Positions 8,698-25,415 of a stretch of 64,000 nucleotides of DNA are shown here, one piece after another. The translations under genes and the position numbers were made by a program. The notes under the pieces were generated by a model, which was given only the letters and a program-made list of their open reading frames with translations, made no database searches and was not told where the DNA came from. Positions within the stretch are counted from its first letter, which is position 1. Every line of letters begins with the position of its first letter. Source of the stretch: Candidatus Latescibacterota bacterium (GTDB taxonomy: Bacteria > Latescibacterota > UBA2968 > UBA8231); contig OZ241362.1 in the NCBI GenBank assembly GCA_965200315.1, forward strand, positions 3,040,001 through 3,104,000. The letters run 5' to 3'.

Positions 8698-8752
8698 TCT
8701 GATACAACCCGCGCTTGCGCGACTGGCAACATTGACCAGGAGAAAAACGAAG

Positions 8753-9772
8753 ATGAGCCAACTCAGCATCGGCGTCGCCGGGCTTGGCCACGGCCGAACG
8801 CTACTTGGGGCCAACCAGCCGGAAAACAGCACCCTGCCGATCCGCGTCACCGCTCTGTGCGACGCACAGCAAGACAAACTCGAAGCGCTCGGCCGCGAAT
8901 TCGGGATCGACGCCCTCACGTCTGATTTCGACGAACTAGTCGCACGAAGCGACCTCGACGTCATCGGTATCTACACGCCCGGCCCGCTCCACGCGCAGCA
9001 GATCCTGACCGCGCTCGACGCGGGCAAGCACGTGATGGTCACCAAGTCGATGGTGTACACGATGGAAGAGGTCGAACAGGTTGTGGAAGCCGTTGACCGA
9101 TCCGGCAAGGTGCTGCTCGTCACGCAGAGTCTGCGCGGGAGGTATGACTTCATTGAGGCCAAGCGCGCCTGCGATGCCGGCGAGATCGGTGAACTCTTCA
9201 TGGCCGAAGCCCACTACGTTCACGATCTCCGCCCGGTCTATGCCTACTCGCCGTGGCGAGTCGAGATGCCGCAGGACCTGATATTGGGCGGGGCCTGCCA
9301 CCCGATTGATCTTCTGAGCTGGTTCATGGGCGACATAGACGAAGTCCATTGCTACGGGCTGCGCAGCGGCGTCGCACCGGACTATCCCCAAGAGGACAAC
9401 TTCGTCGTCAACGTGAAGTTCACATCTGGAAAGATCGGACGCATTGCGAACTTTCTCGGCATCGTACACCCACACGACGTCCCGATGAACAGCCTTGCCG
9501 TTTACGGGACTCGCGGCACCATTCTCAACGGCGTAAAAAGCCTCGATCCCATCGGCGACCTGCCCTCGCGCAGGGTCGCCGCAGAATTCTCATCTATGCG
9601 GGGCCACGCCAGCGAGATGATCGTCATGCTGCGGCACATGGCTGATTGCGTCCTGAACGGTACAAAGCCTTGGGTCGGCGTCCGCGAGGGGGCTAGGGTG
9701 GTTGCCACAGGGCTTGCGTGTTGGGATTCGCTCAGATCGGGGATGCCAGAGAAGGTGCGGAACGATTTCTGA
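8753..9772 (+). CDS. Gfo/Idh/MocA oxidoreductase
   Basis: GVAGLGHG Rossmann start, TPGPLH, AGKHVMVTKS, CHPID. Confidence 0.9.
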   Translation: MSQLSIGVAGLGHGRTLLGANQPENSTLPIRVTALCDAQQDKLEALGREFGIDALTSDFDELVARSDLDVIGIYTPGPLHAQQILTALDAGKHVMVTKSMVYTMEEVEQVVEAVDRSGKVLLVTQSLRGRYDFIEAKRACDAGEIGELFMAEAHYVHDLRPVYAYSPWRVEMPQDLILGGACHPIDLLSWFMGDIDEVHCYGLRSGVAPDYPQEDNFVVNVKFTSGKIGRIANFLGIVHPHDVPMNSLAVYGTRGTILNGVKSLDPIGDLPSRRVAAEFSSMRGHASEMIVMLRHMADCVLNGTKPWVGVREGARVVATGLACWDSLRSGMPEKVRNDF

Positions 9773-9793
9773 CGACGTAGAGGGGAGCCCTTC

Positions 9794-10783
9794 GTGCCCG
9801 TTTGTATTCCCAAAGACGCCAAGCGCATTATGCCCGATCTGTTGCGGGACTTTACTACTGAAGTGTTGCGCAAAGTCCGTTTGCCCGACGGCGATGCTGC
9901 GTTGATTGCGCGCTATCTGGTGGATGTGGATTTGCGCGGGGTGGTTTCCCACGGTACGCGCCAGTTGCAACGGTATGTAGCTGAGTTTCGCGAGGGACGC
10001 ATTAACTCACATCCCGAAATTGCCCAAGTCATGGATGCCCCTTCAATGGCGATTTTTGACGGCGACGGCGGTACAGGTTACTTGGTAGCAACGCATGCAA
10101 CAGAGGCCGTCATTGAAAAGGCGAAAGCAAATGGCGTTGCCGTTGTGTGTACGCGCAATCACGGGCATGTGGGCAGCGTGGGGATTTATGCGCGGCTGGC
10201 ATTGGCACGCGATTTGGCGACCTTTGCCGTGGCTGGGGGTATCGCTTGGGAAAAGCCGACGCACCCCGATGCAACGGTGTGGGATGCAATGCATGCACCG
10301 CCGATGTGTTTTGGCATTCCAACGGCAGCAGGCCCGCCGTTTGTGCTGGATATGAATGCGAACATGTTGAAAGACCGCAGCAGGCTCGCCGAGGCATTGC
10401 AGACATTTCCAGATTTTGTTTTCAAGAGTTTGGGAATGCGATTTACGTCGTGGTTCTTGGCGGGCATTTTAGCGGGCACGGCGACGCCTGAATCGCGCAA
10501 TCCAAAATTCGCAAGTGCCACGCGGGCATTTATGCTGGTGGCGATTGATGTGGCGCGGTTGGGCGATTTGGAGGCTTATAAGGCAGAGCTTGCTCGCATT
10601 TTGCGCGCGAGCCGGTCGCTAAACCCCATGCCGGGCTTGGCAAGTGCCGAAGTGCCCGGCAGCTTGGAGTGGCAGCGCGAACAAGCGCGTGAGCAGAGCG
10701 GCATCCCACTGACCGAAGAACATTTCGACATGTTGCAGTGCATTGCTACGGAGATCAATGTCCCCGTTCCTTGGGAATTGTAG
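9794..10783 (+). CDS. Ldh_2 (malate/L-lactate/ureidoglycolate dehydrogenase) family oxidoreductase
   Basis: DLRGVVSHG, DGDGGTG, RNHGHVG, terminal VPGSLE...GIPL. Confidence 0.88.
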   Translation: MPVCIPKDAKRIMPDLLRDFTTEVLRKVRLPDGDAALIARYLVDVDLRGVVSHGTRQLQRYVAEFREGRINSHPEIAQVMDAPSMAIFDGDGGTGYLVATHATEAVIEKAKANGVAVVCTRNHGHVGSVGIYARLALARDLATFAVAGGIAWEKPTHPDATVWDAMHAPPMCFGIPTAAGPPFVLDMNANMLKDRSRLAEALQTFPDFVFKSLGMRFTSWFLAGILAGTATPESRNPKFASATRAFMLVAIDVARLGDLEAYKAELARILRASRSLNPMPGLASAEVPGSLEWQREQAREQSGIPLTEEHFDMLQCIATEINVPVPWEL

Positions 10784-10802
10784 TGGACGATAATGCGGCG
10801 AT

Positions 10803-10868
10803 GCGGCCCCGCAGCTACCCTTCAAAAGCAAGTACCCGCAGCGGAATGGCGTCGGTTTCGGCGGCCGG
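10803..10868. repeat. Left copy of 66-bp direct repeat (displaced 3' end of cyclase gene; att-like)
   Basis: Identical to 21357-21422; encodes PAAETDAIPLRVLAFEG* on the minus strand. Confidence 0.95.
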
Positions 10869-10934
10869 AAAGCAGATATGGCCCAAATCATTGCATCTAC
10901 TAACAAAGGTTTTTTATGATAAATCCTTATGAGA

Positions 10935-11284
10935 AGCGTAACGCTCTGCGCGTCCACGATCCCCGCCGCGGGCGTCGGCTTGCGGCCTTGCTGGGGGCGT
11001 TCCCGCCGGGTTAGCGCGTCAAGGATGCGTTTCCAAACCCCGGGTTGACGCCACCGATGAAAGTAGCTATATACCGTCTGCCAAGGGCCGAAAGACGCCG
11101 GGAGCCATCGGCCAAGGACCCCCGTTTTAGCCCGATATAAAAGGCCATGGATAACGACCCGCACTTCCCGGGGCGGACGACCCCGCCCCCCGCGACACCA
11201 ACGACACGAAGGAAGCAGGCGAGCAAGCACAGACTATTGCTCATCGGTCAAATCGGTTGCAGATGCCAGACCGGACGTACTCAT
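10935..11284 (-). pseudogene. IS5-family transposase remnant
   Basis: TDLTDEQ*(W to stop), GLLYRAKTG..WLPASFGPWQTVYSYFHRW, PTPAAGIVDAQSV, then truncated. Confidence 0.88.
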
Positions 11285-11382
11285 GTAACCCGCCGTTCAG
11301 GCTTTGTCGTGAAACCTAAAGGTCGCTAATGGGTACGTCCTTTCAACATAAAAACAACTAAAAGGGAATTTTAAAGACGCTT

Positions 11383-13599
11383 TTGAGAATTTCGAGAGAG
11401 AAGTTAAAGGCTGAGGCGGATGCCTTGCGTAAGCGGGCCGAGCCGGTTTGGGCGGCCCTTGAAGACCTTGAAGGCCGCGACCAGTGCCAGCGAGCATTCG
11501 AGAGTTCGCTGTTGCACTTTGAACAACAACGCCTTTGCATCACAGTGATGGGGGAGTTCAATACGGGCAAATCTACCCTCCTCAACACTTTTATCGGAGA
11601 AGAACTGCTTGCGACCGACCAGTTGGAATGTACGGCCGTGCCAACTTGGATTCGGTGGGCAGACAGCGAAAGCTTCGATGAGGATCGACAGGCCACCGTG
11701 ATTTATAAGAATGGCGATTCGGCTGCCATGCCCCGGTCTGAGGTCAGTGTCCATACTACTCTTGATCAGGACTCTTGGGAGGCCACTGAACGGGTCGAAA
11801 TTGTCTTGCAACCTGAAGAAAAACAACCAACGGGCGTTGTGCTCGTCGATACGCCTGGACTCAACGGCAATCCAGAGTTGGAAGCGCGAAGCATTCATCA
11901 GCTTAGCATGTCTCACGTGACCATTGTCGTGGTTCCCGTCGATGGGATTGGGCGGGAGAGCGATGTCGAGTTGATCAAAAAGGCGCGGTCTATTGCGGCC
12001 CGCGTCATAGTCGTCATCAATAAGTGCGATCAATACGCAAAGATAGGGGATGGATTCGAGAAGTATAAAGAAGAACTCCACAGACGAGTTCCTGATCTTC
12101 CCCGCGAGGAGATTTATACGCTCTCTGCCAAACGCGCTTTTGAAGGCAATGTCTACCGCGATGGCGAAGAGGAACTAGAGAACGAATTTTACCGCTTCTG
12201 CAACGAGCTGCGGAAGAATGCAGAGGAAGAGGTCCAGACCTCTGCACTCCGAAAGCGTCCGTTATTACTTTTGCGCGAGATTTGTAAGACAGAGATCGCT
12301 CACATTGAAAAACGTGATGCAGAGTGCGATGCGAGCGTTTTGAAGGAGCGGAAAGCAGCGGAAGCACATCTTAAAGAGGCCACTAAGAATCTAGAACGCT
12401 CGCTAGACAAAATTCTCCGATTGGCGCGAAAGGCTCTGATGGAGGAGTTGAGGCGCCTCCAACACTTTCTGACCGAAGAACAGCCTCGCATTGAACGCGA
12501 GATGGCGAGGTTTGTCGATGATGGATTAGATGATAAGTTGCTAGAGCGAGATGATCTAAGAGTGGCGCAAAAGATGGTGTCTGAACGGCTAAACGAAAGC
12601 ATGCAAAAATCTATTTTTGAGCGGCTCTCTCGGTTGTTGAGAGCGGTGACGAGTCGATTGATCTATGACCTTGAAAACCGGGGGAGGGTCTCTACGTTGG
12701 ATTTGCCAAAGGTGGCTTCTATCAAACTAGACAAGGCCCCGTTAAAAGAGCAAGCCGACAAAGCGAGTGAGGCGCTGAGCCGCCGAGAAGACGAGCTCGA
12801 TAGGCTGAAGCGGGAGGTCGCAAGGTGTGAGCGGGCTGTGCAAAGGCGAAAGGCAAAGGTCGAAACGCTTGAGAGACAGTCTGCTCAGTTAGAGAATTTA
12901 GAGAAGCAACGCAAAAAGGCTGTGAGGGATAGAACGCAACTCGGGCCGAAACCGGCTCCAAAAGTGGAACATTACACTGATTATGTGACGAGGGCCGTGG
13001 AGCGCGGCGGATTAGGATGGATTTTGGACATATTCCATACCAAGACCGAAGTGTTCCCGGTGACGCGGCAACGCAAAGATTATAGCCCCGTTAAAAAATG
13101 GGAACGCGAGTACGAGGCGGCGAATGAGAAGGTTTCCGATTTAGATAAGAAGATTAAGCCTCTCAAAGAGATGCGGACAGAGATGAGAAAGATCGAAGGC
13201 GAGATTCCAAAATTGCGACGAGAGGCTAACAATGCCAAAGCAAACTTGAGACGTGCAGAGGCGCGTCTGGCAGAGGAACGAGAGAGGTATCGTCAGTCGG
13301 GAATGAAAACCCGACAAGCACAGCTTAAGGCAGGTGCCCGAAGGGAGTTGGAAAGTCTCTTTGATTCGCTTCCCGATAGACTTGAACGGGAGGCCGAGCA
13401 AATGCTGGAGGGGATTTCACGAGGTTTCCGTACGCGCTTCAAACAGGCTGCGGACCAGCAGCGCAAGGTGCTCGCAGACAAGATGGCGCGGAAGAAGAAA
13501 GAGGCAGACGAAGCAGATGCAGATGATGAACGAGTGAAGCGCGAAGCTGTTCGTAAAACGCTTGCGGAGGCATTGGAGACTTTTCGCAGCGAAAACTGA
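11383..13599 (+). CDS. Dynamin-like GTPase 1
   Basis: G1 GEFNTGKS, G2 TAVPT, G3 DTPG, G4 NKCD, long coiled-coil stalk. Confidence 0.92.
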   Translation: MRISREKLKAEADALRKRAEPVWAALEDLEGRDQCQRAFESSLLHFEQQRLCITVMGEFNTGKSTLLNTFIGEELLATDQLECTAVPTWIRWADSESFDEDRQATVIYKNGDSAAMPRSEVSVHTTLDQDSWEATERVEIVLQPEEKQPTGVVLVDTPGLNGNPELEARSIHQLSMSHVTIVVVPVDGIGRESDVELIKKARSIAARVIVVINKCDQYAKIGDGFEKYKEELHRRVPDLPREEIYTLSAKRAFEGNVYRDGEEELENEFYRFCNELRKNAEEEVQTSALRKRPLLLLREICKTEIAHIEKRDAECDASVLKERKAAEAHLKEATKNLERSLDKILRLARKALMEELRRLQHFLTEEQPRIEREMARFVDDGLDDKLLERDDLRVAQKMVSERLNESMQKSIFERLSRLLRAVTSRLIYDLENRGRVSTLDLPKVASIKLDKAPLKEQADKASEALSRREDELDRLKREVARCERAVQRRKAKVETLERQSAQLENLEKQRKKAVRDRTQLGPKPAPKVEHYTDYVTRAVERGGLGWILDIFHTKTEVFPVTRQRKDYSPVKKWEREYEAANEKVSDLDKKIKPLKEMRTEMRKIEGEIPKLRREANNAKANLRRAEARLAEERERYRQSGMKTRQAQLKAGARRELESLFDSLPDRLEREAEQMLEGISRGFRTRFKQAADQQRKVLADKMARKKKEADEADADDERVKREAVRKTLAEALETFRSEN

Positions 13600-13618
13600 A
13601 AACTAAGGAGTAAAGAAC

Positions 13619-15979
13619 ATGAGTGTCAAAAATCGGTTTGCGGAGTTGCGCGACGAGGTGGTTGACCTATTGAAGCGATCTGCCAAAGTCATGGAGAATG
13701 TCGTCCCGCACTTGGGCGATGAAAGCGCGAGTAGCCTTCCACAGACTTTCCAAGAACGGGCTAACACCGTTCAGAATGAGGAGTTCGTAGTCGTGGTCGT
13801 CGGCGAGATGAATCGCGGAAAATCCATGCTCCTCAACGCAATGATGCACAAGCAATTACTCACGATGGACGTGCTTGAGTGTACAGCAACAGTCAATTTT
13901 CTTCGGTATCCAAAGACGAAAGAAGGTCAGTCGTCCGACCATGTCGAGGTGCATTTTACCAATGGAAGTCCATCAGAAAAAGTGCCGGTTGATAAACTCG
14001 CAGATTATACCTCGCGGCTCTCTGCCCTCGGCAGCGAAAAAGTGGCGGATTTGGTGAATCATGTAGATGCCTTTGTTAAATCTCCCTTTCTTGAGGACAA
14101 TGTACTGCTCGTAGATACTCCGGGGACGAATACAACTACTCACAACCACATTCGGATTACCAATGATCAGATTGATCGCAGTAATGCGGCCATTTTTCTT
14201 TTTGGTGCAGAAACGCAAGTGACCCAGTCTGATCGGCAGTTTCTCGAGGGTGTAGAAGAGGCTGTCGCCCGCCTATTTTTTGTGGTGAACAAAATTGACA
14301 GTGTTGACGAGAGTCAGATCAGCCGGGTTTTGGAGCGCGTGGAAAGTAGTATTCGGGATGTCGTGGATCAGTCCAAGATGCGCCGAGTCTTTGGCGTGTC
14401 TGGTGCGAAGGCACTGCTTGGGCGTGCTGGGTATGTGAAAACTCCGATTTTGGCAGAGAGTGAGCGGAGCAGGTTGGAGGATCGGCAGTTTCGCGAGACT
14501 TTGATCGAAGAGTCCGGGATCAGTGCCTTTGAGGCTGACCTCGAACGGTATCTTTTTCGTGGCGGCAAGGGTTATGATCTCTTACATAGCCCGCTCTCGT
14601 TCGTTCAAAGCGAGACCGCTAAGCTCATAGAGAAGTTGCATCGGCAGATTGAGGTTCTCGACGACACTTTTGATCTAGCCGATCTCGAATTGAAAGTAGA
14701 AAAGATGGAACGCGTTGTGGAAGATCGAAAACGCGAAATCGAAGGCATGAAGGGTGAACTTTCTGAGGAGTTTTCGCAGACATTATCGCAGGCAAAAGAT
14801 GCCTTTGAGGAGCGATGCAAGTTGGCTGAAGAAGCTCTCAAGGACGAGATCAATGCCTACGACTCGCATGAAGCGCTTAAAGACAACTGGGGCGCGGGTG
14901 CCCAATTAGCCAATTTACCGGGCAGAAATTTCGCGGCACTCGGAAGGCAGGCGGGGAAGTTGTTGAATGACGCCGTAGGTAGTGTGCTACGCAAGCAGAC
15001 GCGAGAGATTCGGAGGCAGGTTCGGGGCGAGCTGGGAGAGATCGCTTTGGAGCTTCCCGAAGTACCCGACATGGCGTTTCAGGTGCCGGAACCGAAGATC
15101 GATGAAGCTGAAGCAGAGAAAGTCAAAGAACTCGAAAGAGAAATTGAAGACCGTGATCGGCAGTTAGAAAAGTTGGATGAGGCACAGGCAGGATCGAATG
15201 AACGTCGCTACATGGACCTAAAGGAGGAAAAGAAGCGATTGAACGAGGAATATCTCGCAGAACTCCAAAGTCACGGCAGCCGTCCCGCGGTGAGAACTAG
15301 AACGGTTATAGAAGAAAAGGTTGAAGATGTCAGAGGAATTGGAGGGGTCTTCATGTTCCTTTTGAGGGGAAAAAAGCGGGTACAAGTACCAAGAGAAGTT
15401 GATGATGACCGAGCCCAAAAACATTACGACAAAAGCAAAGGGCGCATTGAGGACCAGTACCAAGAGAAGTTAGCTGAACTCAACCGCCGAACAAATGAAG
15501 CAGAGGTAAAGTACGACGCCGAGTTGTCGGAGAGGCGCAAAGCCGAGGTACTGGAAAAACTCAATCGAAATCGGAAACAGGCATTGGAACGGGCAGAAAG
15601 CCAGTATCGGGAAAATGTGGCGAAAGCTCGTCAACGCGCTGTGGAGTCAACCAAAGGACGATTGATTAGCACCTTTCAACGCGCTGTGGAAACTCTAGAA
15701 ACCGCTGTGGAACATTGTGTCGGTCAGACCGAAAAGATGGCCACGGATTTCATTGAGAACGCAATAGCGGAGCTCGATGCCACTTTGAATGGCCACAATC
15801 AGGAGTTGGCAAAGCTCAAATCTTTGAAGGACACAAAAGAAAGCGAGCGGGATACCAAAAAGGAAGGAATTACGGAGGCACTAGAAGAACTGAAGACCTT
15901 GCAAGAGGGGGCGTCGAGCTTAGAGAAAGAGCACGAGGCTTTTGTTGCGGAATCTGGCGAGGAGGTAACAAATGAGTGA
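13619..15979 (+). CDS. Dynamin-like GTPase 2
   Basis: G1 GEMNRGKS, G2 TATVN, G3 DTPG, G4 NKID, SGISAFEADL; RBS AAGGAG. Confidence 0.93.
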   Translation: MSVKNRFAELRDEVVDLLKRSAKVMENVVPHLGDESASSLPQTFQERANTVQNEEFVVVVVGEMNRGKSMLLNAMMHKQLLTMDVLECTATVNFLRYPKTKEGQSSDHVEVHFTNGSPSEKVPVDKLADYTSRLSALGSEKVADLVNHVDAFVKSPFLEDNVLLVDTPGTNTTTHNHIRITNDQIDRSNAAIFLFGAETQVTQSDRQFLEGVEEAVARLFFVVNKIDSVDESQISRVLERVESSIRDVVDQSKMRRVFGVSGAKALLGRAGYVKTPILAESERSRLEDRQFRETLIEESGISAFEADLERYLFRGGKGYDLLHSPLSFVQSETAKLIEKLHRQIEVLDDTFDLADLELKVEKMERVVEDRKREIEGMKGELSEEFSQTLSQAKDAFEERCKLAEEALKDEINAYDSHEALKDNWGAGAQLANLPGRNFAALGRQAGKLLNDAVGSVLRKQTREIRRQVRGELGEIALELPEVPDMAFQVPEPKIDEAEAEKVKELEREIEDRDRQLEKLDEAQAGSNERRYMDLKEEKKRLNEEYLAELQSHGSRPAVRTRTVIEEKVEDVRGIGGVFMFLLRGKKRVQVPREVDDDRAQKHYDKSKGRIEDQYQEKLAELNRRTNEAEVKYDAELSERRKAEVLEKLNRNRKQALERAESQYRENVAKARQRAVESTKGRLISTFQRAVETLETAVEHCVGQTEKMATDFIENAIAELDATLNGHNQELAKLKSLKDTKESERDTKKEGITEALEELKTLQEGASSLEKEHEAFVAESGEEVTNE

Positions 15980-18362
15980 GTCGAGTGCTAGGGAACGCTG
16001 GAGAAAGATCGTCGAGACGCTGGATGCCGCTGGATTGGACCATTTGGCGGCTTATGTTCGCGACGAGTCTAATGCTGCACACGCCGCACCGTTGAGCATC
16101 CCCATCATCGGCGAAACCGGGTCGGGAAAGAGCGCGTTGGTTGCTCGCATTTTTGGGGTAGAGCCAGCGACTTTTCCTATAGACGTTCTCGAATCCACGG
16201 CTCGTCCGGTTGAAGTCAAGTACGCACGAACTAATTATCGCGCTGTGGTGCATGGTGATTCTGAGGAATGGGAAGAGTGTGAAGATGATGCACGTTGGGA
16301 CGCGCTGGTACGGGGACAGGATCCACTCAGTAGCGGTTCGCGTCTTGAAGTCGGGTTGCAGCGCGAAGACTTGGCGACTTGGAATGCCAGCATTGTGGAT
16401 ACGCCCGGAATGAATACCAACACGCCGGAATTGGAGGGACGCGCTTGGGCTGCGGCCGCTACTGCGCCGGTGGTGATATTAGCCATCCCCGCGACGAGCA
16501 CGGGCCGGAGGACTGACATTGACTACTTGGAGAGCTTGGGCGACAACTCGGCGAGTGTTGTAATCGCGCTTACAAAAGCAGATCAGCTACCACAAGATTC
16601 GGTAGATCGAGTTATCGACGATTTTCGCAATCGCCTCGCCGAGCGCGGTATCTCGCCGCTTGAGATATTGCCGACATCGAGTACCGAGGGAAAAGGTATT
16701 GAAAAGCTGCGGCAGGTTTTGACCGAGGTAACGGGAATGCGCCGCGATCAATTGATCGCGCACCATGTTGGTGGTCGCGTGGTTGCGAAGATTCAGAGTG
16801 AATTGTCGGCTCTCCGCCTCAAGCAGACGGCTCTCGAATCGGAGGCATTGACCATAAGGGAACGAGGCGAGATCGAAGAGCGCGATATTGACGAGGAAAG
16901 GGCCGACCAAGAGGCTGATCTTACAAACACCACCAACACATTGAAAGATCGCTGTAAGCGGCTGCGTCTCGAAGCGTTCAATCGCATGCACGAAATTGGT
17001 AAGGCGGTTCTCCAAACCATTTCCGAGGAGATCGCCCCATTACAAACCCGGGACCAAGTTCAGCATTTTGCCGATAGCTCTGTTCGCCGGTGCGTTTTAC
17101 AGTGGCGGGAAAAGTGTATTGCCGTGGCTGAAGGTCGCTTGGAGGAGCTCGACCAAGCAGGTGTCCAAACGGCCAAGGAGATGGCATCTCAACACTTTGA
17201 TCAGATCGGCCTGGCAACGGATTGGCTACAAGAACTGCCGGAAGGAACGGTGTCCCCTGCTTGGGACTCGGCAAGTGTCGATGATTTGCAGAATTTTCGA
17301 GCGGAGTTGGAGGGCGAAATTGAGGAATTGAAGAAACAGAAACACGCGCCAGCCGAGGAGTTGGAAGATATCCAACAGGCACTATCTGTTACACAAACGG
17401 AGCGCGACAAACTCGTATATGTGCCGCAGATGGATAAGGTTCGCCTCGACCAAGGAGCAGGAGAATTTCGAGAGGGTGGGCGTATATTGGGGAAGATCGC
17501 AGATGTGGCTTTGACTTTATCACCTATTCCCACAGGAGGAAAGGTCGGTGTGTTTTTGAAAAATCTGCCAAAGGGGGGGCAGATCATTAGTGGGATCAAG
17601 AAATACAATGGCCTCATTGCCGCACGCGACAAACGGTTGCTAAACGCTGTGTCCAGTACTACACATCTGTCCAAGCCTTTGCAGACAAAACTGCCGGCTA
17701 CGCCCGGTAGAAGGATGACAACAGATGTAGCCCGAGGGTGGCTGATGAAAGCTATCGATAACTTGTCCCTTGAAACTTGGGGCGAACGCTTGGGCGGAGC
17801 AGTAGGCAATTGGATTAGTCCCGACAAAGTAGTAGAGATCGAGAATGAAGAGGTGCGTCAAGAGTTTCTCAAGCGAACGAAGCCCTTTGAGGATGAGATA
17901 CACAAGCTCAGGTATGAACAAACGAAAATCAAGTCGAGGCAGAATGAGATTGACCGGAAGCTAGAAGAAAAAATCGTCGAATTAGAGCGCAGAAAGCAGC
18001 TCGAAAAAGAGAGCGAGGAGTTGACGACACGCCAGCAGCGTTTAGAGGCAGAGGAACAGGCCACCAAGGCCAAGACAGCCTTGATGGCGCAACTGACTCG
18101 TCAATTTCTCGCTCACGATGGGGATTCGCTCTGTGCGGATATCCGCAAGGCCGTGGGCGCGGGTTTTGCTTCCGCCGATGAAGCACTTGAGAATCACCTG
18201 CGGGAGCGCGTGAGTGCTATCAAGTCCGAGGTTCAGGCCGCGTTGAAGGAAGCGCGAGCCAAACACGCTGAGGGAGAAGCGGCGGTCAAAAAAGCACTTG
18301 AAGAGAACCAGAAGATGCGTTCGGCCCTTGAGTCTGCATTATCACAACAGGAGACATTATGA
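15972..18362 (+). CDS. Dynamin-like GTPase 3
   Basis: G1 GETGSGKS, G2 TARPV, G3 DTPG, G4 TKAD; 8-nt overlap with gene 2. Confidence 0.9.
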   Translation: MSESSARERWRKIVETLDAAGLDHLAAYVRDESNAAHAAPLSIPIIGETGSGKSALVARIFGVEPATFPIDVLESTARPVEVKYARTNYRAVVHGDSEEWEECEDDARWDALVRGQDPLSSGSRLEVGLQREDLATWNASIVDTPGMNTNTPELEGRAWAAAATAPVVILAIPATSTGRRTDIDYLESLGDNSASVVIALTKADQLPQDSVDRVIDDFRNRLAERGISPLEILPTSSTEGKGIEKLRQVLTEVTGMRRDQLIAHHVGGRVVAKIQSELSALRLKQTALESEALTIRERGEIEERDIDEERADQEADLTNTTNTLKDRCKRLRLEAFNRMHEIGKAVLQTISEEIAPLQTRDQVQHFADSSVRRCVLQWREKCIAVAEGRLEELDQAGVQTAKEMASQHFDQIGLATDWLQELPEGTVSPAWDSASVDDLQNFRAELEGEIEELKKQKHAPAEELEDIQQALSVTQTERDKLVYVPQMDKVRLDQGAGEFREGGRILGKIADVALTLSPIPTGGKVGVFLKNLPKGGQIISGIKKYNGLIAARDKRLLNAVSSTTHLSKPLQTKLPATPGRRMTTDVARGWLMKAIDNLSLETWGERLGGAVGNWISPDKVVEIENEEVRQEFLKRTKPFEDEIHKLRYEQTKIKSRQNEIDRKLEEKIVELERRKQLEKESEELTTRQQRLEAEEQATKAKTALMAQLTRQFLAHDGDSLCADIRKAVGAGFASADEALENHLRERVSAIKSEVQAALKEARAKHAEGEAAVKKALEENQKMRSALESALSQQETL

Positions 18363-19309
18363 GTCAGGGCATAGTCGCTCTCTGGGAACGGGTTCTCGAA
18401 AGAGACCGGGCTTTGAAGAAAACCTTGTCCGACGCCAGTGTAGTCGAGTCGAGCGACGATCCACTTGACGATTTTGATACTAGTATCCCTGATGATGGGT
18501 CTGAACCAGAGACTGATGATCCATTCGCTGATCTTGATCTCGACATTGAGTTTGACGACGATGAGTCTGAGCCAGATGGGTCTGAACCAGATGGGTCTGA
18601 ACCAGAGACTGATGATCCATTCGCTGATCTTGATCTCGACATTGAGTTTGACGACGATGAGTCTGAGCCAGATGAAGCAGAGAAGATCGTCGATGTACTC
18701 TTCGAGGAGTCGGCTGATCTCTGGTTGTCTCGGTCTCGTCTCGCGCTGGAACACGCGCTCCTGTCAATGGGACTCACGCGGGATGTTTTCCCCACAAAAC
18801 GCCCGCTACTGATCTTCGGATCACATCGTTCAAGGATCATCGCGCCCGAGTATCACCGCGTGGAGGTCACGCGGGAAGGTTGGCCCTGTCGCCTACAATC
18901 CACCGAACTGCTGACAAGCACTGCTGCTGCAAAAATTCTGGCATCTTCCCATGAGGGCGAGACCGTTGCGGTTGAGGTTTCAAATCCGTTGCTCGCCCGC
19001 GACCGGTGGATTGTCTTGTGGCCAAAGTTGGAAGTGCTTCCCGAAGTGACGGAGCTGCATCAATGGCAGCAGGTGCGCCGGGTCGTGTGGTGCGTCAATC
19101 GGGAGCAAATTGGACCGCAGGATGTCATTGATTGGCTTGCCCGTTGGCAAAACACACCCATTCGCATAGCACTCTTTAGAGTGACATCTTTTCTGCATGG
19201 GGAACAGGATGAGGTAGCACAATCAAAGGTGTTGCCAAGAGTTCGTCGAACACTCAAAAAATTCGATGCGATTAAGAGCCAGCCTTGGACCGTGGTAGGG
19301 CCGCAGTGA
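18359..19309 (+). CDS. Acidic-repeat protein, possible degenerate dynamin G-domain
   Basis: ATGA overlap; D/E-rich repeat followed by an alpha/beta region echoing the dynamin G-domain pattern without G motifs. Confidence 0.7.
   Translation: MSQGIVALWERVLERDRALKKTLSDASVVESSDDPLDDFDTSIPDDGSEPETDDPFADLDLDIEFDDDESEPDGSEPDGSEPETDDPFADLDLDIEFDDDESEPDEAEKIVDVLFEESADLWLSRSRLALEHALLSMGLTRDVFPTKRPLLIFGSHRSRIIAPEYHRVEVTREGWPCRLQSTELLTSTAAAKILASSHEGETVAVEVSNPLLARDRWIVLWPKLEVLPEVTELHQWQQVRRVVWCVNREQIGPQDVIDWLARWQNTPIRIALFRVTSFLHGEQDEVAQSKVLPRVRRTLKKFDAIKSQPWTVVGPQ
18494..18674 (+). repeat. Intragenic duplication, two identical 85-bp copies (18494-18578, 18590-18674)
   Basis: Encodes DGSEPETDDPFADLDLDIEFDDDESEP twice with an extra DGSEP. 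Confidence 0.95.
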
Positions 19310-19929
19310 CGATGTGGGCAAAAAATAATTCCGAATTTCTCGGGTTCCTCACCGGCGTTGACGACCGCGATGCCTTCTCAAAAACCCAGCGTTTCTCTGT
19401 CGTTAGGTCCCCCAATGTAAGTGACACAGCCGAGATAGAAAAGCCGCCAGAGGCTCAAAACGACGTTCTGGCACTGGTGTATGAAATTTTGGGGGTTTTG
19501 AGGAAGGAAGGAACGGGAAAAAGACTATCTGCGAGAGACTTACTGAATGTTCTCCAAGTAGATAGCCTCTTCTCGAAGGCGACTCGGTCGATGGTCAAGG
19601 TCGCCAGGTCTGACTCGCCGTTGCAAGGAGCGGTTCAGGGGCTTGTTACAGAAGCCTATATCGAACGGATCCGAAATGAATTTGTCGGCGAATTGGCGCG
19701 TTCCCTCAAAGTGTTTCGAGAACGCCTCGCAAAAGACCGTGCAAAGGATGATTGGCGGGAGGAGTTGGATCGCGGCGTCGTACTTTACGATGTCTTTCGG
19801 CCGAATCTCTGGGAGCTTTATCAGGAACTTTGGGGCAAATGGCGGGATGATATGGCGCGTATCGACGCCTTGGCTACACACGTACAGCGCATTGACGAGA
19901 CATTAAAGAGAGAGGAGAGAGACTCGTGA
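19306..19929 (+). CDS. Hypothetical helical protein
   Basis: GTGA overlap with upstream stop (or ATG at 19312); overlaps the next start. Confidence 0.7.
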   Translation: MTMWAKNNSEFLGFLTGVDDRDAFSKTQRFSVVRSPNVSDTAEIEKPPEAQNDVLALVYEILGVLRKEGTGKRLSARDLLNVLQVDSLFSKATRSMVKVARSDSPLQGAVQGLVTEAYIERIRNEFVGELARSLKVFRERLAKDRAKDDWREELDRGVVLYDVFRPNLWELYQELWGKWRDDMARIDALATHVQRIDETLKREERDS

Positions 19930-20942
19930 AGAAAACGGTGTTATTTGCATTCGGGGCTGTGTTCCCTTTGGTCGCCTTGGCTGTTTTAACCATCATCATG
20001 CCCTCTCTTGGGACGTGGGTTATCGTGATGGGGGTCTCTGTGATCGCAGGTGTATTTTTAGCACAGGCTAGACAGGAGTTGGGGAAGCTGCTCTTGAGTG
20101 TTCGCGAAGGGCTTGATGCAGGAACTCAGACGACACTAAAGGCATTGAGGGAGGAAAACAAAGAAAACAAAGCTACAAGAAGAGAGGCGAACAAAATTCT
20201 CGCTGAACGATTTGAACGTTTTTTCGAGGAGTACGGACAGCGGGACGCAGACTGGCGCACCAAGACGCTGGCCGAGTGGCAGTCCGTGACGCAGGCGTTG
20301 GCTTCGTCTTTTGAAAAGATGTTAGCGGATACGAGCTCTCGTCTCATAACGCTTGCCGAGCAAGAGCGAGTATTGCAAGAAGAAGCGGCAAAAGATAGGG
20401 CCGAGGCCATGCAGGCCGAAGCGAAACAAGTACGCAGTGAATTTGCCCAGCTCTGCGAGGCGACGAAAGAAGCGGTAGAACAACACGCAGCCGTAATTCA
20501 GGCGACGCAAAAGGTCATTGAGAACGTCGAGAATCATTTCGCCAAACAGCAGGCGAACACACTCACTGAGTGGCAGTCCGTGACGCAGGCGTTGGCTTCG
20601 TCTTTTGAGAAGAACCTCGCAACGCTTGCCGAGCGAGAGCGAGTATTACAAGAAAAAGCGGCGCAAGAGAGAACCGAGGCCATTGATGCTGGATTGGCGC
20701 AAATAAAAGAAATTTTTGCACTGGTTGAAGATGCACTCAACAAACTCAATGCAGAATTTGAAAAGGTGATTGGGGAGCTTCGCGCACTCGTTAAAGAAGA
20801 GACGCAAAGACAGCAGGAGCAGAAACGCGGTGACCGAGATCACCTCGAAAAAATGTTGGAAGTTCAACAAAAGGCCCATGACGAAGCTGCGGAACGCTCT
20901 GGGCAGTTGTGGGGCCGTTTGCTCGATCAACTGAAAAAGTAA
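19926..20942 (+). CDS. Membrane-anchored coiled-coil protein
   Basis: Two N-terminal hydrophobic segments, then coiled coil with duplicated EWQSVTQALASSFEK. Confidence 0.8.
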   Translation: MKKTVLFAFGAVFPLVALAVLTIIMPSLGTWVIVMGVSVIAGVFLAQARQELGKLLLSVREGLDAGTQTTLKALREENKENKATRREANKILAERFERFFEEYGQRDADWRTKTLAEWQSVTQALASSFEKMLADTSSRLITLAEQERVLQEEAAKDRAEAMQAEAKQVRSEFAQLCEATKEAVEQHAAVIQATQKVIENVENHFAKQQANTLTEWQSVTQALASSFEKNLATLAERERVLQEKAAQERTEAIDAGLAQIKEIFALVEDALNKLNAEFEKVIGELRALVKEETQRQQEQKRGDRDHLEKMLEVQQKAHDEAAERSGQLWGRLLDQLKK

Positions 20943-21340
20943 TGGCGGATCGTACCTTACATGAGAGGCTGCATTCGGAGCTTGCCACAACCGAGTTGAA
21001 GGCGGTACTGGCTGAAAATCCAAGGCTGTCAAGCCTCGTGGAGAATAGTATGCGCCGGGCGCGGGAGTTGGTTGAGCAAAGACGAGTGCTAGAGGCGCAG
21101 GTCTGGCTAGCGGGAATTACTGCGATCGTCGAACGCCGTCGCCGCGAGCGCGTTGCCGCCAAACAGCGTCAAGAAGAACGCATTGCAACTCTAGTGGAGA
21201 TCCTCGGTAGCGATCCGCCGGCCAAAGGTCTCGGTGGATTACTCTCCCATGCGGCAACTCTTCAGCCCGACACTACCAGAAAACTCCTCGATGTGGTCGA
21301 AAATGCGCTGACGTGCGCTGAGCCGAGGACGGCCCCCTAG
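20942..21340 (+). CDS. Small hypothetical helical protein
   Basis: TAATG overlap with upstream stop; last gene of the operon. Confidence 0.65.
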   Translation: MADRTLHERLHSELATTELKAVLAENPRLSSLVENSMRRARELVEQRRVLEAQVWLAGITAIVERRRRERVAAKQRQEERIATLVEILGSDPPAKGLGGLLSHAATLQPDTTRKLLDVVENALTCAEPRTAP

Positions 21341-21356
21341 ACGACGGACGCGCTGA

Positions 21357-21422
21357 GCGGCCCCGCAGCTACCCTTCAAAAGCAAGTACCCGCAGCGGAA
21401 TGGCGTCGGTTTCGGCGGCCGG
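21357..21422. repeat. Right copy of 66-bp direct repeat (3' end of intact cyclase gene)
   Basis: Identical to 10803-10868. Confidence 0.95.
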
Positions 21423-22031
21423 CAGCGGCTGGGCGAAAAGGTAAACGCGAGGTTGTCGCAGAGAGGCCAAGCGGTCCAAGCTCTCGATTAGGGGGATGCC
21501 GTGCGCGAAGAGCAGGTGGTGGTTGGGCAGGCTGCGGTCACCCGGAATATCTAGACCGGGGGTGTCGATGCCGAGCAGTTTAACGCCAGCTTCGACGAGC
21601 CAGCGCAGGGCTGCGGTCGTGGGGTAAGGCGGATAAGAACCAGCGGTAGCCCGTTGATCCCAATCAAAGCGAAAGAGGGCGATGTCTCCCGGGCGGACGC
21701 CTCCGCTTGGGGCGGCCCGTTGGAATTGTTCCGGCGAGAGCGGCTCGCCCAGCGGCGCATCGCTAAAGTCGAAGACAATGGCCTCGCCAAAAAAGCGCTC
21801 GACATCGAGATCGGCGATGGCCGGGCCGTCTTGGACGGCGTGTAAAGGCCCTTCGACATGAGTGCCGGCGTGACCGCCCATTTCGATGTTGGTGGTGATA
21901 TACCAGCGGTCGGTCGGCGGATCATCGACGGGTACGCGCACCGTGCGGTAGTGGATGAGGCGGCCTTCCGACGGCGCAATAGTCCGCGAAAGGTCTACCA
22001 TGCGGCTGTAGGCGAAGGAAGGAACCTTCAC
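21369..22031 (-). CDS. Cyclase family (kynurenine formamidase-like) metallohydrolase
   Basis: VDLSRTI, HAGTHVEGPLH, LGIDTPG, HHLLF...IESL. Confidence 0.9.
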   Translation of the reverse strand: MKVPSFAYSRMVDLSRTIAPSEGRLIHYRTVRVPVDDPPTDRWYITTNIEMGGHAGTHVEGPLHAVQDGPAIADLDVERFFGEAIVFDFSDAPLGEPLSPEQFQRAAPSGGVRPGDIALFRFDWDQRATAGSYPPYPTTAALRWLVEAGVKLLGIDTPGLDIPGDRSLPNHHLLFAHGIPLIESLDRLASLRQPRVYLFAQPLPAAETDAIPLRVLAFEG

Positions 22032-22807
22032 GCGATGACCTTTTTGAGGGCGATAGCGGTCTCGCCGTCGTCGGTGTATGCTGGCAGTGCGCCGCTCAAG
22101 GTTACGCGGCCATCGTAGCCGGATGCGCGTAAGGTGTGTAGAAAGAGCGCGTGGTCGGCCGGCGTGGTTTGCGGTCGGCCGCGCCCCGGCTCGGCGATGT
22201 GGGCGTGAATAAGGTGCGGCCCGGCTTGTTTGAGCGCGTCGAAGGACTCGCCGTTGAGCTTCATGTGAAAGAAGTCGGCCATTAGCTTGGCATGAGAACG
22301 GTCAACTTCCTGTATAAACTCGGTCGCTTCAGAAACGGTATTGAGCAGATTGGCGTCGTCGCGGTTGTAAGGTTCAAGCGCCACCTTGACGCCCCGCGGC
22401 TCGCCGAGGTCGGCGCACAGGTGCAAGAAGTCGGCGACTTGTTGGCGAGCTATGTTGCGGTCGAAACCGTCGGGCACCCAGCGCGAGCCGCCGCTGCCGT
22501 AGCCGATGACCTCAACGCCGGCCCGCTGCATCCGGTCGAAGACCTGCGTCACAAAAGTACGCAGCCGTTCCAAGCTCACGTCGGGGCCGACGACCATTAG
22601 CCCGCGCCTCTGCGGATCGCCAATAAAACCGCACATCGTCTTCATCTGGAGCGGGTGCTTTTCCAAAAGTGCCAAGAATTCGCGCTCGGCCTGTGGGGCG
22701 TCAGCATCGATGCCGAGCAGACCGGGGAAGCCTTCGAGATAGTCGAAATCCCAATCGGCAGACTCTTCAAGCTCCCGAAGATTGGTAACTAAGAGGCCGA
22801 TCTGCAT
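22028..22807 (-). CDS. Sugar phosphate isomerase/epimerase (TIM barrel)
   Basis: VALEPYN, ADFFHM, HAHIAE. Confidence 0.85.
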   Translation of the reverse strand: MQIGLLVTNLRELEESADWDFDYLEGFPGLLGIDADAPQAEREFLALLEKHPLQMKTMCGFIGDPQRRGLMVVGPDVSLERLRTFVTQVFDRMQRAGVEVIGYGSGGSRWVPDGFDRNIARQQVADFLHLCADLGEPRGVKVALEPYNRDDANLLNTVSEATEFIQEVDRSHAKLMADFFHMKLNGESFDALKQAGPHLIHAHIAEPGRGRPQTTPADHALFLHTLRASGYDGRVTLSGALPAYTDDGETAIALKKVIA

Positions 22808-22809
22808 GA

Positions 22810-23898
22810 CTATTTGCTCCGGATCCAGCTCATGCCCTCGCCGCGCACCAAAAAGGAGCGCTCGTCCCAATGGCCGGGCCGGGTGACGGGTATACGCCCC
22901 TCCTCGACGGCCACGTCGAGCGGGTTGTCGCGGGTTTGCAGCGGCAGAGCCACGCGCTCGTGCAGCCTAGCCGACTCATAGACGCCCATCATGATCTCGG
23001 TGGCGGCCTTGCCGTGCTCGGCCTTGCCGTAGTAGTCCTCGAAGTCGCCCTCGATCCAGCGGCAAATCCCGTAGGCCTGATCGACAAAGGCGTTGCCGTA
23101 GCCGCTGGCCTTGTCGGTGGGTTCAAAGTCTTGCCAGCCGCCGGAGGTAGCCGTCATGTAGCGCAGGCTGTTGTCGCTGACAACCATCATGCCGTCTTCG
23201 CCGTAAATGGTGGCACCCACCTGATATATATCGTTCATCTCGTTTTCGATCACGCCCTCGACCCCATTGGGATAGCCGATGATCCCCACACAGCGGTCTT
23301 CGACCCGGTGGCCGAAGACGAAGTGGTCGGTGTGGCGCTCGACCGAGCCCATGACCCACTCGGCCTGTGGATCGCCGAGGGCGTAGAGCTGGAAGTCGAT
23401 GCAGTGAGTGCCAGTGTTCATCATCCCGGCCTTGACCGCCGACCACAACCGCTGCGGCTTGCCGATGGCTCCGTCGGCGATCATCCGCCGTGCCTCGCGC
23501 CAACAAGAGTAAAAACGGCGTTGGTGGCCGATGGCGAGCTTGACGTCGTTGCGCTCTGCGGCGATGACCATGGCCTCGGCCTCGCCCAAGGAGACGGCCA
23601 TGGGCTTTTCGCAGAGCACGGCTTTGGGACGCCGAGCGCAGGCGGCGATGGACATTTCCGCATGCTGGGGATCCCAAGAGCAAACGCTGACGATGTCGAG
23701 GTTTTCCATGTTGAGCATTTCTCGGTAGTCGAGGTACTGCTTTTCGACGTGGAAATCCGCGGCGTAGCTGGCCAAGGCTTCGGGGTGGGAGTCGGCACAG
23801 GCGACGATTTCAGTGTGTTCGCACTCGGCCCAGCCGCGGCCGTGCTCGCGGGCAATGCGACCGGAGGCAATGACGCCGACGCGATACTTGGCAGGCAT
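22810..23898 (-). CDS. Gfo/Idh/MocA oxidoreductase
   Basis: VGVIASGRIA, CEKPMA, GHQRRF, THCID. Confidence 0.92.
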   Translation of the reverse strand: MPAKYRVGVIASGRIAREHGRGWAECEHTEIVACADSHPEALASYAADFHVEKQYLDYREMLNMENLDIVSVCSWDPQHAEMSIAACARRPKAVLCEKPMAVSLGEAEAMVIAAERNDVKLAIGHQRRFYSCWREARRMIADGAIGKPQRLWSAVKAGMMNTGTHCIDFQLYALGDPQAEWVMGSVERHTDHFVFGHRVEDRCVGIIGYPNGVEGVIENEMNDIYQVGATIYGEDGMMVVSDNSLRYMTATSGGWQDFEPTDKASGYGNAFVDQAYGICRWIEGDFEDYYGKAEHGKAATEIMMGVYESARLHERVALPLQTRDNPLDVAVEEGRIPVTRPGHWDERSFLVRGEGMSWIRSK

Positions 23899-23900
23899 CG

Positions 23901-24815
23901 CTACTTGGCGTCGCCTAGGTGCATCAGCGGCAGTGGTGCAGGGCTGTCGCCATCGATGAAATAGACCTTGGCGGCCGGATCTTTGGAAATAGCTTCAAGG
24001 GACTTGAGCGCTTGGAGCTTGACGTAGTTGGGATTGCGGCCGATGGCGTCGTTGATCTTGGTAATTTCGTACGCTTGGGCGTCGGCGAGTAGGCGGCGCT
24101 TTTCGGCCTCGGCCTCGGCGGCGTTCTTTTCGGCCTCGGCGGCGGCAACTATCTGTTCCTGCTCGGTGGTGAAGCGCTCCAACTCGGCCTTTTGCTTTTC
24201 GACTTCCTGCTCGCGCTCTTTTTTGGCCTCAATAGCCTTGGTGATAAAGGGCGGCAGGGAGATGTCGCGGATCAACACGGCCTCTACGTCAACCCCTTTG
24301 GGAGCGAGATAATCCTTCAGCCCTTCGAGCAGAGCCGTTTGCAAAGTGGTCTGTGTCTCTTCCAAAAAGAAGTCCTCGGCGCGCTTGATGGTCTTGCCCT
24401 GCTCGCGGATGAGTGAGCGCAGCTTGGGCACGATGTGTACAGAGCGCACGTTTTCAAAACCGCCCGTCTCCTGTAAGATGCGCGGCGTGTCGGCCGATAT
24501 GAGACGGTACTGAACGCTGACGTCGATCTTGGTCTGTAGCTGATCTTGGCTGGGGACACTGGAGGTTTCGGAGTGCGTCTTTTGGCGCACGTCGAAGAGG
24601 GACCATTCGTAGAGGGGGTTGACGGGGATGTGCAGGCCCTCGCCGAAGTGCTTGAACTGGACTTCGCCGAAGAGGGTGGCGACGGCCACATGGCCGGCCG
24701 GGACGCTTTGTAAGAAGCGCGGACTGACGAGGAATAGGACGAAGACAGCGGCGATGATGCCGAGGATGGACTTAGGGAGCTGGATCATGGGGGGCCTCCT
24801 TACGGGCTCGGACAT
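23901..24815 (-). CDS. SPFH/prohibitin family membrane protein
   Basis: N-terminal TM, VPAGHVAV, GEGLH..NP, AIEAK coiled coil. Confidence 0.9.
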   Translation of the reverse strand: MSEPVRRPPMIQLPKSILGIIAAVFVLFLVSPRFLQSVPAGHVAVATLFGEVQFKHFGEGLHIPVNPLYEWSLFDVRQKTHSETSSVPSQDQLQTKIDVSVQYRLISADTPRILQETGGFENVRSVHIVPKLRSLIREQGKTIKRAEDFFLEETQTTLQTALLEGLKDYLAPKGVDVEAVLIRDISLPPFITKAIEAKKEREQEVEKQKAELERFTTEQEQIVAAAEAEKNAAEAEAEKRRLLADAQAYEITKINDAIGRNPNYVKLQALKSLEAISKDPAAKVYFIDGDSPAPLPLMHLGDAK

Positions 24816-24924
24816 TTTTACCTGCCTTTGATGGGGTTGGAGAAATTAATAGCCTAGAAGGTAAATCCTCCACCTGAAAATGTCCATAAAAGCACCCAAG
24901 ACCAAATACTCGGCAGTAGGATGG

Positions 24925-25330
24925 CTAGGTAAAAATGCAAAGCCCCGCCGCGCCGCTCGGTGCGGTGAATGGTGAGATAGCCGGTCTGGAACAAGCGTGC
25001 TTCGGTGGCGATGGCGTCCACATCGAAGGTCGACAACAGATCGCTGCTGCCCACCATGTCATCTAGCGCTAGGGAGCTTACCCGCCGCTCAAACAGGGTT
25101 TCGACTAGGAACGCCGGTGTGCCGGTCTCGAACCAGTAGGCACCGAACTCGCGGTTGCGGAACAGCAGCAGCACGTCGAAGGGGTTGTACACCTTCTCCT
25201 CGCCGAGCGTTTCGGGCCTCGTCGAGCTCTGCCGAGACGCTGAGCTCAACGTCGAAGCCCAGTTGTAGCCGTTGTACTAGGTGCCGATCTCGTCCCGGTT
25301 GAGGCCCGGAAGCTCCGGGGCGAACACGCG
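24925..25330 (-). pseudogene. AAA-ATPase-like (PD-(D/E)XK-associated) gene fragment
   Basis: *YNGYNW..LGEEKVYNPFDVLLLF..YWFETGTP..LFQTGYLTI; internal stop and 51-nt insertion. Confidence 0.8.
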
Positions 25331-25415
25331 TTTACCCAACTTTTTGAAAATGTACACCCCAAATCAGCGCAGAGCATTGACGGAAAAAATGACTAGCTAC
25401 CAAATAACTCACTGA

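Follow-up and report, generated by a model that had tools for sequence, protein, structure and literature searches.

The window analyzed in this study is a 64,000-nt stretch of the genome of a Candidatus Latescibacterota bacterium (contig OZ241362.1, positions 3,040,001 to 3,104,000), and the system in question is a cassette of seven genes (g1–g7) located at 11383–21340 of this window. An earlier note on this DNA had described seven co-oriented genes, and the list of open reading frames (ORFs) together with the junction sequences confirms that all seven lie on the + strand. The junctions are also as claimed: g1 and g2 are separated by a gap of 19 nt, in which an AAGGAG motif is located, and the later genes meet at ATGAGTGA, ATGA, GTGA, GTGA, and TAATG. 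The genes are listed below.

11383..13599, + strand: g1, dynamin-like protein A, 738 aa with a TTG start; GEFNTGKS (G1), DTPG (G3), NKCD (G4); tip at aa ~542
13619..15979, + strand: g2, dynamin-like protein B, 786 aa; GEMNRGKS (G1), DTPG (G3), NKID (G4); tip at aa ~573
15972..18362, + strand: g3, divergent dynamin-like protein C, 796 aa; GETGSGKS (G1), DTPG (G3), TKAD (G4)
18359..19309, + strand: g4, 316 aa; conserved N-terminal helix, disordered acidic repeats, and a conserved C-terminal part predicted to have a G-domain-like fold without a P-loop
19306..19929, + strand: g5, 207 aa; conserved N-terminal motif followed by a helical bundle
19926..20942, + strand: g6, 338 aa; two N-terminal transmembrane (TM) helices (aa ~4–47) followed by a coiled coil with an internal repeat
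20942..21340, + strand: g7, 132 aa; small conserved helical protein

The starts of g5 and g7 are not those of the longest ORFs; they were set at GTG 19306 and ATG 20942, respectively, because of the gene overlaps and the ortholog alignments. The tight overlaps indicate that the genes are likely co-translated. An Rfam scan of 10500–21700 at E ≤ 1 gave no matches, i.e., no riboswitch leader, and the counts of the promoter/terminator scan equal those of shuffled controls.

A scan of species-representative genomes revealed five other loci, four in Latescibacterota metagenome-assembled genomes (MAGs) and one in a MAG labelled Pseudomonadales. In all five, tblastn detected g1–g7 in identical order, so that genes 4–7 do accompany the dynamins elsewhere, a co-occurrence on which the earlier note had made its proposal depend. 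Two of these copies are not intact as assembled: in locus L013, g1 is interrupted by the contig end, and in locus L011, g7 is split by an insertion carrying a DDE transposase ORF. With five of five other loci sharing both gene content and gene order, the arrangement is not a product of chance.

The first three genes encode full-length dynamin-like proteins (DLPs), in agreement with the earlier note. Each matches Pfam Dynamin_N above its cut-off of 27, namely g1 (5.5e-19, 69.2 bits), g2 (5.8e-23, 82.2 bits), and g3 (1.9e-8, 34.9 bits), and their G1, G3, and G4 motifs are intact. All 18 orthologs of g1–g3 have G1 (GxxxxGKS) and G3 (DTPG), and 17 of the 18 have G4 ([NT]KxD), the single exception being g2 of L013, which falls outside the pattern used. 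The closest solved relative of g1 is C. jejuni DLP2 (5owv_C, 7.8e-10), and those of g2 are Nostoc BDLP (2j68, 1.6e-15) and C. jejuni DLP1 (5owv_A, 1.6e-11), with the alignment to the latter reaching aa 352; g2 also matches IniA by sequence (2.2e-6). For g3, which contains a conserved Gly/Pro/Lys-rich insert at aa ~495–640, the sequence search returned no solved dynamin. PHROGs gave weak coiled-coil or P-loop matches for g1 and g2 and nothing for g3–g7. In a maximum-likelihood tree of the G-domain halves, g1, g2, and g3 each form their own clade (support 96/99, 99/99, and 99/99) on long stems, although the deep forks are not resolved. Because each forms a supported clade on a long stem, the three proteins are old paralogs rather than recent duplicates.

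About 500 residues follow each G domain of g1–g3, and the DLPs carry conserved Gly-rich hydrophobic tips (aa ~542 in g1 and aa ~573 in g2). The g2 ortholog of locus L011 (L011 4184–6628) has a ~30-residue Gly/Ala/Leu-rich hydrophobic expansion exactly at this putative paddle tip. This expansion fits a tip that would serve as a membrane-inserting element tolerant of length change.

The earlier note described g4 as an acidic-repeat protein. This description holds as far as it goes: a perfect 85-nt tandem duplication at 18494–18674 encodes acidic repeats of the DDPFADLDxxF type, including two exact 32-residue units. However, it is incomplete, since g4 also carries what looks like a dynamin-fold G domain without a P-loop. 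An AlphaFold2 model computed from 39 sequences shows an α/β fold, with predicted local distance difference test (pLDDT) values of 72–89 over aa 120–220 and 63–79 up to aa 260. A Foldseek search of the PDB with aa ~110–316 gave 12 matches at E ≤ 0.001, all of which belong to the dynamin family; the top matches are IniA (1.1e-4), MFN2 (1.7e-4), MFN1, and Cj-DLP2 (7.6e-4). When the same segment was compared with their G domains by VIA as a second look, Z-scores of 5.8–6.2 were obtained, with root-mean-square deviation (rmsd) values of 4–5 Å over ~170 residues. A VIA search of 48,161 representative chains, independent of Foldseek, identified only five chains at Z ≥ 5, each of them a G domain of the dynamin family: SynDLP (Z 7.0, rmsd 5.1 Å, 165 residues), Cj-DLP2 (5.9), BDLP (5.8), MFN2 (5.8), and Fzo1 (5.8). 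Indeed, the top nine rows of this search all belong to the dynamin superfamily. The ESM Atlas returned GTPase-like leads for g4 below the threshold (0.78–0.81). Pfam detects nothing in g4–g7, and NCBIfam adds nothing specific.

The P-loop, in turn, is missing throughout the g4 family. The Walker A pattern was found in none of the 39 g4 relatives, nor in any member of a set of nine that includes four remote relatives. Instead, the family has a near-invariant PNPLL motif (N209 and L211 invariant, P210 conserved in at least 90%) and an N/D-R/K-E/D-Q motif. Judging from the strand order of the model, a reading that is not a residue-level superposition, these two motifs appear to occupy the places expected for DxxG and NKxD. 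Because a dynamin-type fold is combined with the lack of a P-loop in 39 of 39 relatives, the C-terminal domain of g4 (aa ~110–316) looks like a dynamin pseudo-GTPase, a newly recognised component. The acidic region is predicted to be disordered and contains zero to three Asp-Pro-Phe-type motifs across the 39 relatives; remote family members carry another acidic motif. The family is very rare, with 12 clusters, none annotated, in a profile search of 1.84 billion representatives. For the C-terminal part, 65 relatives at E ≤ 0.001 were found among 496 candidates, none with a Pfam domain or a name.

The remaining three genes encode the small partners. As the earlier note had proposed, g6 is a two-TM coiled-coil protein: it has a single hydrophobic stretch (aa 1–51), conserved in six of six orthologs, which is read as two TM helices forming a hairpin with both ends on the cytoplasmic side. 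The hydrophobicity scan found no TM-like segment in the other six cassette proteins. The internal repeat of g6 lies at 20262–20410 and 20556–20683, and the repeat number varies between orthologs. The PADLOC matches of g6 to Zorya ZorA are weak (6.7e-5 and 4.7e-4) and involve the coiled coil only (profile positions 324–578 of 780 and 291–562 of 692 on g6 aa 61–323); no MotA/ExbB-type channel domain is matched, Pfam finds nothing, and an assignment as ZorA was rejected. g5 is modelled as a helical bundle (pLDDT 71). Its VIA Z-score of 10.0 to residues 514–677 of 5owv_A is on a par with that of a designed helical bundle (Z 10.3) and does not reach the trust level for helical folds; thus, g5 was not taken as a dynamin trunk. 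When g4 (aa 115–316) and g5 were submitted to complex prediction, the scores were 0.01 and 0.02, where 0.32 is the mark; this outcome bears neither way on the idea of a split dead dynamin. A 526-aa g5–g6 read-through protein has a single member and was set aside as a possible frameshift or assembly error. Among 424 candidates, 50 relatives of g5 were found at E ≤ 0.001, none with a Pfam domain or a name. g7 is 70–89% identical to its orthologs, with no match in Pfam, NCBIfam, the ESM Atlas, or PHROGs.

The cassette is confined to a few genomes. Of the 168 genomes of the phylum, five contain g5 (four of the 31 from the genus), and g3 occurs in exactly those same five; in the order of the distant carrier, the cassette was found in 1 of 301 sampled genomes. 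The g5 alignment detected no locus in JGI metagenome contigs or viral contigs, and the g5 protein had no tblastn match in plasmid or phage collections. The cassette proteins of L013 share 42–70% identity with those of the window, whereas its RecQ and RlmN share 38% and 45%, respectively. This comparison indicates that the cassette has moved between distant lineages. The module is accessory and has spread horizontally.

Within the genus, the cassette always lies between the same two genes, a Ldh_2-family gene and a cyclase gene. In agreement with the earlier note, the island is bounded by repeats: a perfect 66-nt direct repeat is present on both sides, and these two copies, which are 100% identical, are the only ones in the whole 5.36-Mb genome. 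The features at the boundaries are listed below.

10803..10868, no strand assigned: left copy of the 66-nt direct repeat, duplicating the 3′-terminal part of the cyclase gene together with the 12 nt that follow it
11025..11230, − strand: IS4/IS5-family transposase remnant, DUF4096 N-terminal part only (Pfam PF13340, 2e-16, aa 2–69 of ORF 10619–11230 on the − strand)
21357..21422, no strand assigned: right copy of the direct repeat (66 nt), which overlaps the cyclase gene (21369–22031, minus strand) at its true 3′ end

The left copy directly adjoins the Ldh_2-family gene (9794–10783), and the segment 10517–10868 is collinear with the empty site of the related genome G131, where the convergent genes are 48 nt apart. 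The stretch from the left repeat to g1 contains the transposase remnant, which is missing at that place in locus L009. The perfect identity of the two repeat copies is perhaps best explained by recent conversion or rearrangement in this genome. The cassette has a GC content of 52%, as compared to 59% for the genome, and in six of six loci the cassette (50–57%) is 4–11 points below its flanks (58–65%). The gap between the convergent Ldh_2-family and cyclase genes is a variable hotspot in the genus; among five non-carriers inspected, two have empty sites (gaps of 48 nt and ~100 nt) and three have other small cargo. In L009, three partial copies of the cyclase 3′-end repeat (2076–2116, 12024–12077, and 13413–13472) lie between successive cargo modules, which suggests that cargo may have accreted stepwise at one attachment-like sequence. 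The Ldh_2-family and cyclase proteins share 89–95% identity with those of the window in carriers and 88–95% in non-carriers; since these ranges overlap, the two genes do not separate carriers from non-carriers.

A comparison of the window (genome G000) with L009 (genome G141) gave synonymous divergence (dS) values of 0.39–0.63 for the cassette genes and 0.29–0.51 for the flanks. The ratio of nonsynonymous to synonymous divergence (dN/dS) was 0.17–0.33 for the cassette as compared to 0.06–0.13 for four metabolic flank genes. On our reading of these values, the cassette has resided at the locus for about as long as the species have been separated, its proteins evolve several times faster, and it has repeatedly been lost or exchanged. 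Repeated independent insertion within the genus was also considered. Because the dS of the cassette is similar to that of the flanks, co-inheritance with loss, or exchange by recombination in the flanks, is favored instead.

Sequences from RNA libraries cover the cassette as well. Three metatranscriptome runs of one study contain 0.97–0.99 of the sampled words of the stretch, which is also present in a DNA run (X1) that is labelled sponge metagenome and flagged as a possible origin of this DNA. When the RNA-library contigs were mapped onto 8000–26000, all seven genes were covered in three of three runs. Single RNA contigs run from ~10860–10987 to 18523 (X2 and X5) or 17631 (X6), and the internal repeats of g4 and g6 interrupt the contigs in the RNA runs and in the DNA run alike. 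The contig word depth is 21–30 for g1–g3, 12.5–39 for g4–g7, 2–14 for the upstream genes, and 0–5 for 24828–25428. Because this depth is uneven where that of the DNA run is flat (~150–205 up to 25428), the comparison argues that the RNA libraries are not simply DNA.

Several known systems resemble parts of the cassette, although, as the earlier note had anticipated, none is matched in full; PADLOC gave only the weak match of g1 to LeoBC and the coiled-coil match of g6 to ZorA. Eleos, as defined in Millman 2022, consists of two consecutive dynamin-like genes, the first of which is sometimes split; it protects against jumbo phages and requires the P-loops of both proteins (Millman 2022). In the related LeoABC, according to Michie 2014, LeoC and LeoB represent a live G domain split over two genes, with a membrane anchor. 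Like Eleos and LeoABC, the cassette is a multi-dynamin operon with an accessory, island-borne distribution, and these systems offer precedents for a dynamin split over genes (LeoBC) and for a membrane anchor (LeoC). The match of g1 to LeoBC is weak (9.8e-12, 42.8 bits), and none of the seven proteins matched LeoA or any other system model of PADLOC; the pairing of one LeoBC-type with one LeoA-type gene, as two genes or a split three, is thus not found. Furthermore, LeoC is half of a live G domain, whereas g4 has a complete G-like fold without a P-loop, and the cassette has four extra conserved genes. Because there is no LeoA match and only a weak LeoBC match, and because seven genes are conserved here as compared to the two defined for Eleos, the cassette is, by sequence, not a member of Eleos, though its mode of action may be related.

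According to PMC6104087, bacterial DLP genes mostly occur as operon pairs. The adjacent g1 and g2, with their intact G motifs and long, putatively helical C-terminal halves, resemble C. jejuni DLP1/DLP2 (5owv) and Nostoc punctiforme BDLP (2j68/2j69). In contrast to these, the cassette adds a third, very divergent DLP, a stalk-less dead G-domain protein, a TM coiled coil, and two orphans, all in one block. IniA of the mycobacterial iniBAC (6j72) and B. subtilis DynA are described as acting in membrane maintenance under drug, pore-former, or phage stress (for known DLP functions, see PMC6104087, PMC8844932, PMC12998192, and PMC6715688). IniA ranks with the top structural matches of the g4 domain and also matches g2 by sequence, but the cassette has neither an IniB-like gene nor a fused two-headed DLP, and gene number and partners differ. 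The concept of a dead dynamin relative beside membrane-shaping machinery is shared with a eukaryotic DRP-like pseudoenzyme that is described as acting with MICOS (bioRxiv 10.1101/2023.10.03.560745). Its lineage and architecture are unrelated to the cassette, and the likeness is drawn from the description rather than from sequences. The main texts searched describe no cassette that combines three dynamins with a dynamin-fold pseudo-GTPase and the partners found here; variant lists in supplements, e.g., Table S5 of Millman 2022, lie outside this search.

The same genome carries two further paralogous cassettes, each with three tandem dynamin-like genes followed by a 162–163-aa protein without a family.

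G000:C1:5334817–5340862 (L024 4817–10862), + strand: further cassette L024, DLPs of 555, 636, and 661 aa
G000:C1:1434719–1441225 (L025 4719–11225), − strand: further cassette L025, DLPs of 568, 672, and 660 aa

Their DLPs match the LeoA and LeoBC models of PADLOC weakly (down to 3e-17), and their small partner is found in just 6 of 168 genomes of the phylum.

Other genes of the window lie at some distance from the cassette. About 4.5 kb upstream, a low-GC (~50%) cluster of four genes (1572–6918) encodes a C-5 cytosine DNA methylase (PADLOC DruM/MTase_II, 1e-106), a protein of 749 aa bearing two GHKL ATPase domains, and proteins of 418 and 228 aa without a family; these genes probably serve in defence, either of the restriction type or linked to methylation. 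About 5 kb downstream (26140–29682), there is an RNA-repair pair of a Hen1 methyltransferase and Pnkp (kinase-phosphatase-ligase). Pnkp occupies two overlapping frames (27512–28909 and 28096–29682), which may reflect a frameshift or a sequencing error. About 36 kb downstream, on the − strand (57789–60976), lies a Type ISP restriction-modification (R-M)-like pair, consisting of a Type_ISP_C specificity domain (3e-90) and N6_Mtase; the ORFs scanned contain no nuclease or helicase part, and the system is possibly truncated. Finally, a SPFH/Band_7 (flotillin-like) gene on the − strand (23901–24815), 2.5 kb downstream, is part of the conserved flank in carriers, and its dN/dS of 0.23 is above that of the other flank genes. 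Links between flotillin and dynamin have been reported for B. subtilis in PMC4594503.

Considering these features together, the cassette may encode a mobile, membrane-anchored multi-dynamin machine, perhaps regulated by a dead G domain, that protects the membrane under attack; we assign this reading a probability of about 0.5. The three different DLPs would assemble with g4, g5, g6, and g7 at the membrane, where g6 would anchor the assembly to the cytoplasmic membrane and g1–g3 would bind lipid through their Gly-rich hydrophobic tips. GTP-driven pairing of the G domains of g1–g3 would then tether, seal, or reshape the membrane, as for Nostoc BDLP, C. jejuni DLP1/2, IniA, and B. subtilis DynA. 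To hold or gate the machine, g4 would pair its dead G domain with a live one, and its acidic repeats would form a docking or sensing tail. The role of the whole may be to protect the cell membrane against phage, pore-formers, or other envelope stress. A more specific form of this mechanism places the P-loop-less domain of g4 at the G–G dimer interface of one DLP, where it would lock a four-dynamin immune or membrane-guard machine until a trigger acting on the variable acidic repeats, such as a membrane lesion or a protein of phage or host origin, unlocks it; in this exact form, the proposal is doubtful.

Several observations weigh against the reading as a membrane-protecting machine. The assignment of g4 comes wholly from a predicted structure, and the model is of moderate quality (mean pLDDT 58.8). 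The structural Z-scores are modest (5.7–7.0), yet their specificity is high. A profile–profile comparison of the g4 and g2 families by hhalign showed no similarity (probability 0.15%), and because of this lack of sequence similarity, the homology of g4 to dynamins is deduced from its fold alone. The membrane-binding paddles at the tips of the DLPs are likewise suggested by composition only, and the hydrophobicity scan of g1–g3 found no TM-like window outside the G domains. The fold of g5 is uninformative, with no Foldseek match at E ≤ 0.001. As for mobility, the island (10869–21356) has direct repeats but no integrase or recombinase of its own, as an integrative element would have, and the truncated DUF4096 transposase remnant is its sole mobility-related ORF. 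The cargo found at the same hotspot in other genomes consists of a Cu/Zn superoxide dismutase, PhyH-like proteins, and one nuclease-like protein with a HSDR_N_2 (restriction-enzyme-like) domain. The assembled RNA contigs, which come from one study, cannot prove a single transcript or rank expression. Finally, all protein–protein contacts of the machine, its binding to the membrane, its regulation by g4, and its purpose in the cell are inferred from the features described above.

The neighborhood bears on the same question and on its nearest rival, a dedicated anti-phage system. The defence-island context raised in the earlier note is weak: in three independent contexts (the genus hotspot, L012, and L013), the direct neighbors are mostly metabolic or housekeeping genes. 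Only L012 has a Dam-type methylase nearby, and the RecQ of L013, despite strong matches to the DpdF model, has the RQC and HRDC domains of a housekeeping RecQ and was rejected as a defence neighbor. If the cassette were nevertheless related to Eleos as an expanded form, its target would be the virus, or it would abort infection, instead of repairing membranes in general, and g4 or its acidic repeats would sense a phage protein or act as a decoy for it. The activity of the two-gene Eleos against jumbo phages would fit such a role, as would the weak LeoBC match of g1, the accessory, patchy, low-GC, and cross-phylum distribution, the raised dN/dS, the variable repeat numbers of g4 and g6, and the presence, at the distances given above, of the methylase–GHKL cluster, the Hen1–Pnkp pair, and the Type ISP-like R-M pair. 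Yet, the seven proteins include no match to LeoA or to another PADLOC system, and the searches of phages, plasmids, and viral contigs returned no g5. A dedicated anti-phage function is thus possible, though on the unlikely side.

Two other roles are far less probable. It is very unlikely that the cassette is a host-interaction or secretion module of a sponge symbiont, which would act in vesicle release or would engage the eukaryotic endocytic machinery through DPF/FxDxF-like motifs of g4. Acidic Asp-Pro-Phe-type motifs resemble eukaryotic adaptor-binding motifs, and those of g4 are repeated, but 8 of the 39 g4 relatives have none by the pattern used, the others have up to three, and remote members use a different acidic motif. 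LeoABC mutants release ~50% less vesicle cargo, according to Michie 2014, and the DNA run containing the stretch is labelled as sponge metagenome, whereas no signal peptide or secretion gene was seen in the cassette. A housekeeping system of cell biology (division or internal membranes) that merely looks mobile is the most improbable of these readings. The similar dS values of cassette and flanks would fit long co-inheritance at one locus within the genus, and the RNA-library contigs do cover the cassette. However, 27 of the 31 genomes of the genus gave no match, among them six single-contig assemblies, and the five non-carriers inspected have intact flanking genes. Across the phylum, 163 of 168 genomes gave no match, and the g7 of L011 has been split by a transposase insertion.

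The reading as a mobile, membrane-anchored multi-dynamin machine would have several implications for this protein family. Bacterial dynamins are usually described as pairs, whereas the cassette is a co-inherited set of three dynamins, a dead G domain, a membrane anchor, and two orphan partners. Its seven pieces offer a defined system for dissecting hetero-oligomerisation, control by a pseudo-GTPase, and anchoring. If the lock by g4 were true, the cassette would be the first case in bacteria in which a dead dynamin domain controls a dynamin. If phage defence were its role, the class of Eleos-type dynamin immunity would be widened; if it were membrane repair, such repair kits would be traded horizontally.

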